Of a DNA stretch of 56,788 nucleotides, positions 10,236 to 13,190 are shown in pieces. Numbering within the stretch: the stretch's first letter is position 1; each line of letters opens with the position of its first letter. Source of the DNA: Actinomycetota bacterium (GTDB taxonomy: Bacteria; Actinomycetota; Actinomycetes; S36-B12). The notes beneath the pieces were generated by a model. It saw only the letters and a list, made by a program, of their open reading frames with translations, had not been told where the DNA came from and did no database searches. Location: the NCBI GenBank assembly GCA_009700485.1, contig WLLZ01000001.1, positions 1-56,788 on the forward strand, in the 5' to 3' direction. The translations under genes were made by a program, and so were the position numbers.

Positions 10236-11309
10236 GTGGCTTTAACTATTGGCATCGTCGGACTCCCAAATGTTGGCAAATCGACGCTCTTCAACGCGCT
10301 GACCAAAAACGACGTGCTGGCCGCCAACTACCCGTTCGCGACCATTGAGCCGAACACGGGTGTCGTGGGTGTACCCGATCCGCGCCTTGGCGTCCTCGCC
10401 AAGATCTTCGGCTCTGAACGCGAGTTGCCAGCAGCCGTGACTTTCGTCGACATCGCCGGCATCGTCAAAGGAGCGAGTGAAGGCGCTGGCCTCGGCAACA
10501 AGTTCCTGGCCAATATCCGCGAGTCAGAAGCTATCTGCCAGGTGCTCCGGGCATTTCACGACGATGATGTGGTGCACGTCGAAGGTCGGGTGTCTCCCGA
10601 AGAGGATATGGAGACCATCAATACCGAATTAATCTTGGCTGATATACAAACACTCGACAAAGCCATCCCGCGGTTGGAAAAAGAAGCCCGTACCGATAAA
10701 TCGAAAGCAGCCAATCTTGCTGCCGCTCAAGAGGCGCGGGCACTACTGGATGGCGGCACCACCATTTTTGCATCGGGTATCGATAGCGCGCCGCTGCGCG
10801 AGTTGTTCTTGCTGACCGCTAAGCCATTTCTTTACGTAATAAATGTTGATGAAGAAGAACTTGCCGATGTTGATTTTCAGCAAAGGATGCGTGACCTAGT
10901 TGCGCCAGCGGAGGCCGTCTTCCTTGACGCCAAGCTCGAAGCAGAACTTGTTGAACTGCCAGATGATGAAGCACTTGAGTTGTTGCAGTCTGTCGGTCAG
11001 GTTGAATCAGGATTACATGCGTTAGCGCGCGTAGGGTTTGCCACCTTGGGTCTGCAGACTTACCTGACCGCCGGACCGAAAGAAGCCCGCGCCTGGACGA
11101 TCCCGGTGGGTGCAACAGCGCCAGAAGCAGCAGGCGTGATCCACACCGACTTCCAGAAGGGCTTCATCAAGGCTGAAGTTGTCTCCTTCGATGACCTAGT
11201 GGCAACTGGTTCTATGTCTGAAGCCAAGGCGAAAGGCAAAGTCCGCATCGAAGGCAAGGAATATGTCATGGCCGATGGTGACGTGGTCGAGTTTCGCTTC
11301 AATGTCTAG
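10236..11309 (+). CDS. ychF: redox-regulated ribosome-binding ATPase YchF
   Basis: GIVGLPNVGKSTLFNALT G1 motif, ...DIAGIVKGAS..., and C-terminal TGS-like ...AWTIPVGATAPEAAGVIHTDFQKGFIKAEV. Confidence 0.95.
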   Translation: MALTIGIVGLPNVGKSTLFNALTKNDVLAANYPFATIEPNTGVVGVPDPRLGVLAKIFGSERELPAAVTFVDIAGIVKGASEGAGLGNKFLANIRESEAICQVLRAFHDDDVVHVEGRVSPEEDMETINTELILADIQTLDKAIPRLEKEARTDKSKAANLAAAQEARALLDGGTTIFASGIDSAPLRELFLLTAKPFLYVINVDEEELADVDFQQRMRDLVAPAEAVFLDAKLEAELVELPDDEALELLQSVGQVESGLHALARVGFATLGLQTYLTAGPKEARAWTIPVGATAPEAAGVIHTDFQKGFIKAEVVSFDDLVATGSMSEAKAKGKVRIEGKEYVMADGDVVEFRFNV

Positions 11310-11723
11310 CCCGACGTCACGGTTGCACGGAGTGACTGTCCTCGTTGATGACTATGACGAGGCGATAGCGCACTTCGTCGGTGATCTGGGATTCCACCTC
11401 GTCGAGGACACGAACTTGGGAGGCGGAAAGCGCTGGGTCCGGGTCGCACCGGATCCCGAAGGCGGACCTGCGCTGCTACTGGCCGTTGCGTCGACTGCTG
11501 AGCAGCGCGCCGCCATCGGCAGGCAGGTGGACGCGTTGGCTTCTTTCTTCACACGACCGACTTCGCGGCTCAGCACGCCCGCCTTGTGTAGCGCGGCGTC
11601 CGCATGACCGAAGAGCCTCGCGTCGAGGCCTACGGCACCGTGGTCGTGTTTGAAGACCGCTATGGCAACCGCTGGGATCTCATCCAACCTGTCGGCGGTC
11701 ATGGCGGTCATGGCGGTCGGTGA
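11302..11723 (+). pseudogene. VOC/glyoxalase-family gene, disrupted by a frameshift plus an in-frame stop
   Basis: MSSPTSRLHGVTVLVDDYDEAIAHFVGDLGFHLVEDTNLGGGKRWVRVAP... is sensible up to about 11520. The sensible reading (..AGGRVGFFLHTTDFAAQHARLV*RGVRMTEEPRVEAYGTVVVFEDRYGNRWDLIQP..) then continues in another frame and contains TAG at 11589-11591. The ATG overlaps the ychF stop (ATGTCTAG). Confidence 0.7.
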
Positions 11724-11889
11724 CGCGACGTCGTCGAGTTCTACGGATGTCAGATTGACTTCAGATTCTTCAAAGCCTAATTACGTGAAAATTTCTGCAC
11801 TAGTTCGGCAAGCAACCGGCCCCGGACCAACAGCGGTCAGGGGCCAGCAACAAGATTTAAACACCCCCACCTAGTGGCGGGGAACGGGG

Positions 11890-12072
11890 CTACTCTTCAT
11901 TACCCTCAAAGCACAGGTAGGGTGCAACGAGATAATTGCCTGACCAGGGGTTTGCAGAGGGGCCTAGGGTGCCGCCGATACAGGCCGCACCGGGCCGTAC
12001 CCAACCAACACCGAGTGCGAGCCGATCGGTTGGCGCTGAGCTAACTGGGGTAGCAATATCAATATTCGGCAT
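11890..12072 (-). CDS. small peptide, paralog A (60 aa from the ATG), unknown family
   Basis: MPNIDIATPVSSAPTDRLALGVGWVRPGAACIGGTLGPSANPWSGNYLVAPYLCFEGNEE. GGAG lies 6 nt before the ATG (the track uses an upstream TTG at 12084). Hairpin at 11818-11845 downstream in the transcribed sense. Confidence 0.6.
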   Translation of the reverse strand: MPNIDIATPVSSAPTDRLALGVGWVRPGAACIGGTLGPSANPWSGNYLVAPYLCFEGNEE

Positions 12073-12263
12073 CGAGTGCTCCAATCATTGGCCGGGCGAA
12101 TACCCAAACGGGCGCGATCTTCAACGTTACGTCACAAAACGTCAAACACCTACGGTTTGAAGAAACTTTCTACAACGGCTGAACAAACAACTGACCCCCA
12201 ACCAACATCGGTCAGGGGCCAGCAACAGGGTTTAAACACCCCACCTAACGGTAGGAAACGGTG

Positions 12264-12428
12264 CTACTCTTCATTACCCTCAAAGCAAATAGAAGGCATG
12301 TGGGGTGCCCACGAGGGGTTTAGGGTGCCGCCGATACCGGCCGCACCGGGCCGTACCCAACCAACACCTAGTGCGAGCCGATCGGTTGGCGCTGAGCTAA
12401 CTGGGGTAGCAATATCAATATTCGGCAT
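12264..12428 (-). CDS. small peptide, paralog B (54 aa), unknown family; not in the ORF track
   Basis: Hand translation: MPNIDIATPVSSAPTDRLALGVGWVRPGAAGIGGTLNPSWAPHMPSICFEGNEE, stop TAG (plus-strand cta 12264-12266). Same leader and SD as paralog A. Hairpin CTGACC..GGTCAG (12191-12215) followed by a T-rich run in the transcribed sense. Confidence 0.6.
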   Translation of the reverse strand: MPNIDIATPVSSAPTDRLALGVGWVRPGAAGIGGTLNPSWAPHMPSICFEGNEE

Positions 12429-12591
12429 CGAGTGCTCCAATCATTGGCCGGGCGAATACCCAAACGGGCACCGACTAATAATGGTAAATCACTGCTGCCA
12501 AAAAACCAGTGCCCGAGTGAAACTTTCTCCGCAGCCCGCTCTGTCATGGAGATGGTGAAACCACAACTACAGGACTCCGAATCGCCGCCAA

Positions 12592-12620
12592 TTGACTTTA
12601 GTTGGGTTTTCAACTATATT
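12592..12620 (+). promoter_or_regulatory. near-consensus sigma-70-type promoter upstream of the DoxX gene
   Basis: TTGACT (12592-12597), 17-nt spacer, TATATT (12615-12620) in a locally AT-rich patch. TTTCAACTA is repeated at 12608-12616 and 12629-12637. Confidence 0.45.
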
Positions 12621-12748
12621 CGTATAACTTTCAACTAGCCGCTGATCGTCGAGGAAGACCCATCGGTAATCTGTGACCACCCGTTGGCTTCCCTTTTGAT
12701 AACGAGCAGTGGTTGAGTTTCCACCAACTACTAGCTGAAGAGGTATCA

Positions 12749-13099
12749 GTGAACATCGCACTCATCGTCCTTACCGCCCTTCTTGGTTTGATCGGGGCTT
12801 TCTCGGCATTTGGGAAGTACTCAGGTAACGCCAAAACAGTCGAGATGCTGGGCGGTCTTGGCCTCGATAATCGCCAGATCCGCTTGCTGGGAACGATCGA
12901 AATATTCGGCGCATTGGGCCTGCTAGTTGGTATCTGGCTCCCAATATTGGGCCTACTCGCCGCTATTGGCTTCGTTCTTTATTTCTTGGGAGCAGCCATC
13001 GCGCACCTGCGCGCGAAGCAATCAGGTAAGGAAATGGCCCCGGCCTTGGTGCTACTGGTGCTATCGATAATCGTGGTGCTCCTTCAGCTCACCCGTTAG
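12749..13099 (+). CDS. DoxX-family membrane protein
   Basis: Four hydrophobic segments (VNIALIVLTALLGLIGAFSAF...IEIFGALGLLVGIW...LAAIGFVLYFLGAAIAHL...). GTG 12749 is preceded by GAAGAGG; the track ORF begins at TTG 12713. Confidence 0.75.
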   Translation: MNIALIVLTALLGLIGAFSAFGKYSGNAKTVEMLGGLGLDNRQIRLLGTIEIFGALGLLVGIWLPILGLLAAIGFVLYFLGAAIAHLRAKQSGKEMAPALVLLVLSIIVVLLQLTR

Positions 13100-13121: not shown

Positions 13122-13190
13122 TGAATGCGCGCGTTTTAGTCGTTAAATCACCGGAATTCGGTTTTTTAACGACTAAAACGCGCGCATTCA
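13122..13190 (+). terminator. very long perfect hairpin (26-bp stem, 17-nt loop) after the DoxX gene
   Basis: tGAATGCGCGCGTTTTAGTCGTTAAA (13122-13147) pairs perfectly with TTTAACGACTAAAACGCGCGCATTCa (13165-13190). No U-tail follows on the plus strand. The terminator role is inferred from position only. Confidence 0.5.

Follow-up and report, generated by a model that had tools for sequence, protein, structure and literature searches.

Tandem peptide cassettes at the ychF-typA locus of a planktonic actinobacterium are probable precursors for a cyanobactin-type pathway

The window analysed here is the whole of a 56,788-nucleotide (nt) stretch of DNA from an Actinomycetota bacterium (lineage S36-B12; assembly GCA_009700485.1, contig WLLZ01000001.1, positions 1 to 56,788, forward strand). 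Where its ychF and typA blocks meet lie two short tandem genes, A and B, which we interpret as probable precursors of peptides that are ribosomally synthesised and modified post-translationally (RiPPs). Coordinates of the locus refer to this 56.8-kb window; the locus was inspected over positions 11500-12800, minus strand, with the list of open reading frames (ORFs) and a repeat finder. Its features are as follows.

12072..11890, minus strand: precursor gene A, 60 amino acids (aa) plus stop, from the ORF list, the sequence and the CFEGNEE pattern
12072..11956, minus strand: leader of gene A, M1-S39
11955..11911, minus strand: predicted core of gene A, ANPWSGNYLVAPYLC
11910..11893, minus strand: follower of gene A, FEGNEE, with the stop at 11892..11890
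12073..12113, minus strand: 5′ untranslated region (UTR) of copy A, 41 nt, with a GGAG Shine-Dalgarno sequence 6 nt before the ATG
11787..11889, minus strand: 3′ region of cassette A, two G+C-rich hairpins, a putative terminator or transcript-stabilising element
12114..12161, minus strand: unique spacer upstream of A, the presumed promoter of A
12428..12264, minus strand: precursor gene B, 54 aa plus stop, from the ORF list, the sequence and the CFEGNEE pattern
12428..12312, minus strand: leader of gene B
12311..12285, minus strand: predicted core of gene B, WAPHMPSIC
12284..12267, minus strand: follower of gene B, FEGNEE, with the stop at 12266..12264
12429..12469, minus strand: 5′ UTR of copy B, 41 nt, identical to that of copy A
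12162..12263, minus strand: 3′ region of cassette B, two hairpins with a T-rich run after the second, terminator-like
12223..12190: terminator-like site within the 3′ region of cassette B, from a terminator scan
12470..12600, minus strand: unique region upstream of B, a presumed promoter, unrelated to the region upstream of A

Sequence, ORF list and repeat finder all reproduced the two minus-strand cassettes, with the coordinates and peptides, that a preliminary description of this DNA had reported, together with its near-identical leader block and its seven identical final codons. Across the 41-nt 5′ block and codons 1-36, A and B differ by only 2 nt (CTC/CTA at Leu20 and TGT/GGT at residue 31); they agree fully in their final seven codons and stop, and the cores in between cannot be aligned. 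A degenerate, back-translated CFEGNEE pattern matched the window exactly twice, against 0 matches expected, and the repeat finder recovered the shared A/B block as a direct repeat, D1, with 97% identity over its 157 nt. Upstream of the ATG the homology has a sharp limit at 41 nt; beyond that point the two copies are unrelated, bearing out the earlier claim that the upstream regions are not homologous. The 3′ flanks are homologous too (81 nt at 79% and 49 nt at 88% identity; repeats D2 and D3), so that the repeated unit is a complete expression cassette of ~310-330 nt. The downstream hairpin formerly assigned to each copy is present, but there are two per copy, and they lie in flanks that are themselves homologous; those of cassette A fold at −45.5 kcal/mol (z = −3.7) and those of cassette B at −36.6 kcal/mol (z = −2.9). 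Family-wide, the start region has the consensus GGAGcAc.AaATG, and ~95 nt downstream are conserved. A scan for sigma-70 promoters found a minus-strand promoter for neither copy, the spacer at 12114..12161 included.

Pfam and NCBIfam gave no match to either peptide at E ≤ 10. A protein search returned 998 candidate clusters; the best 120 of these all had E ≤ 8e-17 and were nearly all 53-63 aa long, the few longer ones having N-terminal extensions. None of the 120 contained a Pfam domain, and where a name was given it was ‘hypothetical protein’. An exhaustive profile search yielded 60 representatives (50% identity) at E ≤ 0.001, nearly all short peptides; its output has no annotation, and cannot itself show a link to known families. 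Scanning of genomes, one per species, located 116 confirmed stretches in about a dozen metagenome-assembled genomes (MAGs) of freshwater planktonic Actinomycetota, with copy numbers reaching at least 32, 27, 25, 19, 15 and 13 per MAG. Many copies form tandem arrays of roughly ten, and many stretches sit at contig ends, which suggests that the precursor repeats break MAG assemblies. As judged from sequence comparison, the leader is a new sequence family, large and previously unannotated in actinobacteria.

All 80 loci examined (numbered with the prefix L) came from MAGs titled Actinomycetota, Nanopelagicales, acSTL or acI, barring three freshwater MAGs (CAMDKJ01, CAMBQX01 and CAMAVT01; loci L001, L003, L006 and others) titled ‘Bifidobacterium breve’. 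That title is evidently a taxonomic mislabel, given their GC content of ~57%, which is that of the loci generally, and the gene content of actinobacterial plankton. Around the large arrays, the genes met repeatedly have housekeeping roles (abhydrolase, TetR, DEAD helicase, MiaE, NUDIX, acyl-CoA dehydrogenase and T2SSE). ORFs or fragments of rve-type integrases, from insertion sequences, lie in or beside some arrays (L025 8610-9840; L003 2738-3160; L037 15311-16582), and mobile elements may contribute to array rearrangement. Some members of the family are visibly decayed, having lost their tails (...AGCIYGG, ...FVRQCGM).

The family bears the marks of translation. Copies from relatives were anchored on nucleotide motifs alone, without requiring an ORF (n = 142), and the distance from leader to tail was a multiple of three in 139/142 (p = 7e-62), spread over 13 in-frame lengths of 90 to 129 nt; 135/142 had no internal stop. 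Leader variation falls mainly at third codon positions (entropy at positions 1/2/3 of 0.33/0.30/0.69), and the pooled leader ratio of nonsynonymous to synonymous polymorphism (pN/pS) is 0.39, with the caveat that copies for these two measures were chosen by a protein motif. The preliminary description had argued for translation, and had named a frame not conserved among homologues, or substitutions not biased to synonymous sites, as outcomes that would favour a non-coding repeat; homologues keep the frame, and their leader substitutions lean to third positions. Identical cores, for example GYCDVPSPACAAFC and SELAAGGYCDPNSC, are kept across species-level MAGs despite leaders only 82-88% identical in nucleotides, and because they persist behind diverged leaders the cores are under selection rather than random filler.

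A quite different view is that the repeat is non-coding, a small RNA (sRNA) or an element resembling repetitive extragenic palindromes (REPs) or miniature inverted-repeat transposable elements (MITEs), with the ORF incidental. Its dispersal in many copies that break assemblies and often end contigs would suit such an element, as would the conserved UTR and 3′ hairpins, but neither the frame kept in 139/142 copies nor the 3-nt periodicity of variation would be expected of it, and copies are linked to a peptide-maturation cluster described below. Nor did searches for RNA families give a credible match: Rfam returned nothing for the whole window at the gathering threshold and, at E ≤ 10 on 11400-12900, chance-level matches only, one of them a snoRNA match within the cassettes. 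Folding of the 5′ block is no stronger than that of shuffled controls (z = +0.54). An RNA-level function of the ~150-nt block, which the preliminary description had kept as an alternative, was rejected on this frame and codon evidence and for want of excess folding, and we regard the RNA or repeat alternative as effectively excluded.

Alignment resolves the peptides into a near-invariant 39-residue N-terminal part (MPNIDIATPVSSAPTDRLALGVGWVRPGVAGIGGTLNPS), a hypervariable stretch and an invariant CFEGNEE. The 194 peptides that were parsed contain 170 distinct cores, mostly of 8-16 aa, with few Lys, Glu and Asp and many Cys, Ser, Thr and Gly residues. Cores end in Cys in 191/194 peptides, both window copies having Cys here, and in Pro in 2/194; the follower is FEGNEE in 158/194, and NPS precedes the core in 143/194. 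The leader ends in G-T-L-N-P-S directly before the core, to be compared with the PatA site G(L/V)E(A/P)S. To judge by these motifs, (N/G)PS resembles recognition sequence II (RSII) and FEGNEE recognition sequence III (RSIII), in a layout that matches cyanobactin E-peptides; PatG has AYDGE as its RSIII, and PagG has FAGDDAE (bioRxiv 10.1101/2020.03.17.996157). Where cyanobactins are defined by their biosynthesis (PMC12639078, PMC4663559), both features of the precursor are seen here, namely variable cores between conserved recognition sequences and, at P1, a heterocyclisable Cys or Pro before RSIII. The resemblance to E-peptides was taken as a lead only, and then tested by genomic context.

ORFs around all copies were clustered to find recurrent neighbours. 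A tandem pair of paralogues with Peptidase_S8, PatG_D and PatG_C domains adjoins a precursor in L030 and L050, and the full cluster is conserved in L030, L050, L092 and L093. Family members directly adjoin it on three contigs (L030, L050 and L093), and five family precursors flank it in L093. The order is precursor(s), A-type protease, a 119-128-aa protein without family match, G-type protease, ThcOx/SagB dehydrogenase and a 264-aa protein without family match, followed by tailoring and export genes: a sulfotransferase-PqqD fusion, a YcaO protein and a DHA2 efflux protein of the major facilitator superfamily (MFS). Several of these proteins exceed curated cut-offs or carry diagnostic domains, as listed below, where RRE stands for RiPP recognition element and DUF for domain of unknown function.

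L093:3139-5067: A-type protease, TIGR03895 at 726 bits (cut-off 421)
L050:9465-11522: A-type protease, matching PatA structure 4H6V at 1.6e-84 and PatG DUF structure 4UVQ at 1.2e-81
L093:5636-7669: G-type protease, TIGR03895 at 454 bits (cut-off 421)
L093:12033-14297: YcaO protein with leader-binding domain, 755 aa, TIGR03604 at 252 bits (cut-off 219) and TIGR03882 at 87 bits (cut-off 37)
L050 17252-18487, L092 15134-16354 and L093 10782-12026: sulfotransferase (PF00685) fused to a PqqD/RRE-like domain
L050 11723-12106, L093 5268-5624 and L090 9597-9992: 119-131-aa protein without family match, always between the A and G protease genes

The G-type protease matches the PatG macrocyclase structures 4H6X and 4AKS at about 1e-58, and the SagB/ThcOx dehydrogenase, at 109 bits, passes its cut-off of 78. 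In related genomes, then, a PatA-type protease, a PatG-type protease and a fused YcaO all stand beside family members. The position of the 119-131-aa protein is held by patB and patC in the pat cluster. The sulfotransferase-PqqD fusion suggests, from its domain make-up, leader-guided sulfation of the peptide, a tailoring step unreported for cyanobactins; L090 and L091, the diverged clusters, do not have it. Among the cluster proteins scanned, neither a prenyltransferase domain, PatF-type included, nor a methyltransferase domain was detected. In L092 (1-21599) rpoB-rpoC and rpsL-rpsG enclose the whole cluster and a two-component regulator pair; on L050, L090 and L091 the cluster has other flanks.

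The distant relatives L090 and L091, whose G proteases are about 59-60% identical, have diverged precursor arrays by the same core enzymes (L090 6046-7458 and L091 5609-7584, both minus strand). Several of these precursors have two cores, joined by the linkers FDAEAS, SDVNPS or FDADAASPA, which can be read as RSIII plus RSII, as in multi-cassette PatE, and would then mark the core limits independently. In PatE the linker is AYDGVEPS. The leaders of the diverged precursors share the motif (A/S)A(P/A)(V/I)DRL(A/T/N)L, a sign of a wider superfamily.

Our interpretation, to which we give a probability of roughly 85%, is that both window ORFs are trans-encoded cyanobactin-type RiPP precursor (‘E’) peptides, whose pathway would be encoded elsewhere in the genome. 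The leader/core/follower pattern of multi-copy RiPP precursors, recognised in the preliminary description without a family, can in this way be assigned to the cyanobactin type. The leader, notably SSAP(T/S)DRLALGVGWVRPG, would be bound by the RRE of the fused YcaO cyclodehydratase. YcaO would turn at least the invariant last core Cys into thiazoline, which the ThcOx/SagB-type dehydrogenase, dependent on flavin mononucleotide (FMN), could oxidise to thiazole. The PatA-type subtilisin is predicted to cleave after (N/G)PS, in the role of RSII, and the PatG-type subtilisin between the heterocyclised Cys and FEGNEE, in the role of RSIII. The freed core would be either N-to-C cyclised or linear, giving from the window ANPWSGNYLVAPYL-Thz and WAPHMPSI-Thz (Thz, thiazole or thiazoline), and the product might be sulfated and exported by the MFS pump.

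Among known systems, the cyanothecamide pathway (thc cluster, Cyanothece PCC 7425) is alike in its PatA/PatG-type subtilisins with PatG_D and PatG_C domains, its fused YcaO, its separate ThcOx-type oxidase and its several precursor genes with hypervariable cores between conserved recognition sequences; its cores, such as VLYKDQC and KLGDSYC (PMC4663559), end in a single Cys, as do those here. It differs in that the hosts here are freshwater Actinomycetota, the leader has no detectable homology to the PatE or ThcE families, the G-type protease lacks capping helices, some clusters add the sulfotransferase-PqqD fusion, and the precursors number tens per genome, mostly far from the cluster. Up to 10 precursors per cluster have been reported for cyanobactins (PMC4663559), a number far exceeded here. 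With the patellamide and trunkamide pathways (pat, tru) the family shares ‘substrate evolution’, in which near-identical flanking DNA surrounds swapped hypervariable core cassettes, and the RSII-core-RSIII logic (theirs being G(L/V)E(A/P)S ... AYDG(E)); PatE resembles the diverged relatives in L090 and L091 in having two cores per precursor, whereas the window's family has one, with NPS as RSII and FEGNEE, nearer to PagG FAGDDAE, as RSIII. Unlike in the patellamide pathway, the oxidase is not fused to the G protease, and the scan of cluster proteins detected no prenyltransferase domain of the PatF type.

Systems of the thiazole/oxazole-modified microcin (TOMM) or linear azol(in)e-containing peptide (LAP) kind also apply a YcaO (TIGR03604) and a SagB-family dehydrogenase (TIGR03605) to Cys residues of a leader-guided precursor. 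Outside the cyanobactins, however, such clusters are without PatA/PatG-type proteases (PMC4603692), both of which pass the curated cut-off here. Cyanobactins have been described as cyanobacterial (PMC4603692, PMC4663559), and by that historical measure, with hosts in Actinomycetota, the present system falls outside them. Within the literature collection searched, no paper joined cyanobactins with Nanopelagicales-type bacteria or with the phrase ‘outside cyanobacteria’, and the sole paper pairing Nanopelagicales with RiPPs was a retracted marine metagenomics paper.

The prochlorosins of marine picocyanobacteria (ProcM/ProcA) comprise dozens of dispersed precursors with a conserved leader and hypervariable cores, presumably processed by one promiscuous enzyme set. 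At genome level the two work alike, a resemblance of function only, with many dispersed precursors, presumably one enzyme set, and a planktonic oligotroph as host, although azole formation and subtilisin cleavage are predicted here in place of dehydration and cyclisation by LanM. It could be supposed on this account, and on that of cores rich in Cys, Ser, Thr and Gly, that the peptides belong to another RiPP class, such as a prochlorosin-like lanthipeptide library or radical-SAM crosslinked peptides, and that adjacency to the cluster is coincidental. We find this highly improbable: the same cluster adjoins family members on three independent contigs and diverged relatives on two more, the invariant Cys-F(E/D) junction fits a PatG-type site, and no LanM, LanB, LanC, radical-SAM or P450 gene occurs among the recurrent array neighbours. 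The peptides gave no family match to a leader of the Nif11 or nitrile hydratase-like leader peptide (NHLP) type. A lanthipeptide system, with a lanthionine ring between the conserved Ser39 and Cys, was likewise rejected, no Lan enzymes having been found among those neighbours.

The leaders of the window pair are 98.1% identical across their first 36 codons, the highest value among same-locus pairs, for which ~85-87% is typical. The core of copy A recurs, nearly unchanged, in the homologue P0001 behind a more diverged leader, which, set beside the near-identical leaders of the window, indicates that local homogenisation acts on the leaders, while the cores are retained or exchanged. In a single-copy haplotype (L085 2300-3235, compared with window 11601-12891), the unique sequence upstream of B runs into the core and downstream sequence of A, with 100% identity, an arrangement to be expected from a single homologous exchange inside the identical UTR-leader block; in it, the presumed promoter upstream of B would drive the A core. 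The exact copy A peptide is present on 7 metagenome contigs, copy B is annotated as a 54-aa gene on contigs L081-L084 and missing in L085, and cassette number is polymorphic in natural populations (L081-L085). Gene conversion or recombination, proposed earlier as an alternative to the precursor reading, is thus partly borne out, as a mechanism acting on the leader block. A diversity-generating retroelement was also considered and rejected: the cores are unalignable, of unequal length and without adenine-specific substitutions, and no reverse transcriptase was found among the neighbour families scanned.

Several observations weigh against the assignment to a cyanobactin-type pathway. At E ≤ 10 the peptides have no detectable homology to PatE-type or other curated precursor families (NCBIfam/Pfam), and tblastn found no cluster gene within the 56.8-kb window. 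MAG binning could wrongly place cluster and precursors together, although adjacency on a single contig is independent of binning. Finally, the capping-helix insertion of PatG (Pro579-Val605) is absent, by MAFFT alignment, from the actinobacterial G-type proteases act_G_L050, P0145 and P0153, and macrocyclisation is doubtful because this RSIII-binding, water-excluding cap is missing.

On the separation of precursors and enzymes, related genomes are informative. Cluster-adjacent precursors share their leader with the window copies, and the cluster (L050) and the syntenic precursor locus between ychF and typA (L010) occur in one MAG, WLNQ01. The ychF-typA intergenic site holds family members in L007, L010, L035, L037, L042, L055 and L056, with copy number varying among related genomes and no recovered core equal to either of the window's two; the closest species-level relative of the window, CAMDKJ01 (ychF 98% and typA 95% identical), has at least 27 copies. 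That no maturase or exporter is adjacent, as noted at the outset, is true of the window, but in related genomes the cluster adjoins other family members; no enzyme lies beside the window copies because precursors are dispersed and the cluster is elsewhere in related genomes, and the window's own genome presumably contains it too.

Were that genome to have lost the cluster, or never to have had it, A and B would be orphan relics, intact-looking and functionless, and alike merely through recent duplication or gene conversion. The absence of cluster genes from the window, the visible decay of some family members, the polymorphic copy number at the locus and a decaying adjacent gene of the vicinal oxygen chelate (VOC) family are all in keeping with this. 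Both copies, however, retain ATG, Shine-Dalgarno sequence, open frame, Cys-FEGNEE and terminator hairpins, P0001 has kept the core of copy A behind its diverged leader, and, in 12 MAGs, ~95% of copies have an intact frame free of internal stops, which would not be expected of relics. We therefore consider it unlikely that A and B are functionless.

The G-type protease retains the catalytic D/H/S residues and the G-clade motifs IIHCAFCHPSQTG and ENWCxPA, and shares IIHCAFCxPxQT and WCxPA with cyanobacterial PatG homologues. The capping insertion is present in all cyanobacterial PatG-type homologues aligned (P0168, P0171 and P0175-P0177) and missing from every actinobacterial one, and the phmmer alignment of the G-type protease to 4H6X splits at or skips chain residues 64-98. 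In PatG this helix-turn-helix cap is reported to bind RSIII and to keep water away from the acyl-enzyme (PMC10043927; bioRxiv 10.1101/2020.03.17.996157). A cap-less protease might only hydrolyse the follower off, so that the same pathway would yield, rather than macrocycles, linear C-terminal thiazole or thiazoline acids, akin to aeruginosamides or to azol(in)e peptides of the linear kind. Cyanobactins that are linear do exist (PMC4663559), and we take this outcome seriously, at somewhat short of even odds. Known linear cyanobactins, however, are of 3-5 residues, N-prenylated and C-methylated by a dedicated enzyme (PMC4663559), and the cluster proteins scanned contained neither of the corresponding transferase domains; moreover, the G-clade motifs are kept, the acidic RSIII-like follower is strictly conserved, and P1 is Cys or Pro, as macrocyclases require. 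As a speculation, the 119-131-aa protein could supply a missing function.

Cyanobactin-type processing of A and B would make them two entries in a larger repertoire, one enzyme set together with dozens of cassettes with different cores amounting to a combinatorial library, and the conserved 5′ UTR-leader block would be a substrate for homologous recombination by which cassettes are gained, lost and reshuffled. In its fullest form, towards which we lean only slightly, the proposal is that planktonic freshwater Actinobacteria keep a genome-wide cyanobactin-type library, with tens of cassettes in each genome and hundreds of distinct cores across public data, all of it processed by one cluster with a cap-less PatG, whose products arise by a new mode of cyclisation or are long linear peptides with a C-terminal azole, possibly sulfated, and for which the UTR-leader block serves as a shuffling handle.

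The cyanobactin-type pathway would thereby extend to another phylum, one numerically important in lakes, with a natural library whose size has its main precedent in the prochlorosins (no fewer than 170 distinct cores from a small sample, and MAGs with 13-32 genes each). A naturally cap-less protease of the PatG clade offers a direct test of whether the cap is required for macrocyclisation, and the RRE-fused sulfotransferase is a possible new RiPP tailoring step; the promiscuity of cyanobactin enzymes makes them valued for cyclic-peptide library synthesis. For annotation, the family accounts for an assembly-breaking repeat and for hundreds of unnamed proteins without a Pfam or NCBIfam model. 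For ecology, it raises the question of why planktonic lake Actinobacteria should have a hypervariable repertoire of secreted peptides.

The genes beside the cassettes are as first described, a DoxX_2 gene and a glyoxalase/VOC gene that is split in the window. The latter (11263-11723, plus strand) is divided into ORFs of 114 aa and 39 aa in the window and in L082-L085, and is intact on contig L081 (154 aa, PF00903), apparently through a frameshift that is polymorphic in the population. At 13122-13190, in the interval separating the DoxX gene from typA, an inverted repeat of 32 nt (5-nt loop, 94% complementarity) forms a very strong hairpin, which may terminate transcription in both directions or serve as a regulatory element for typA.

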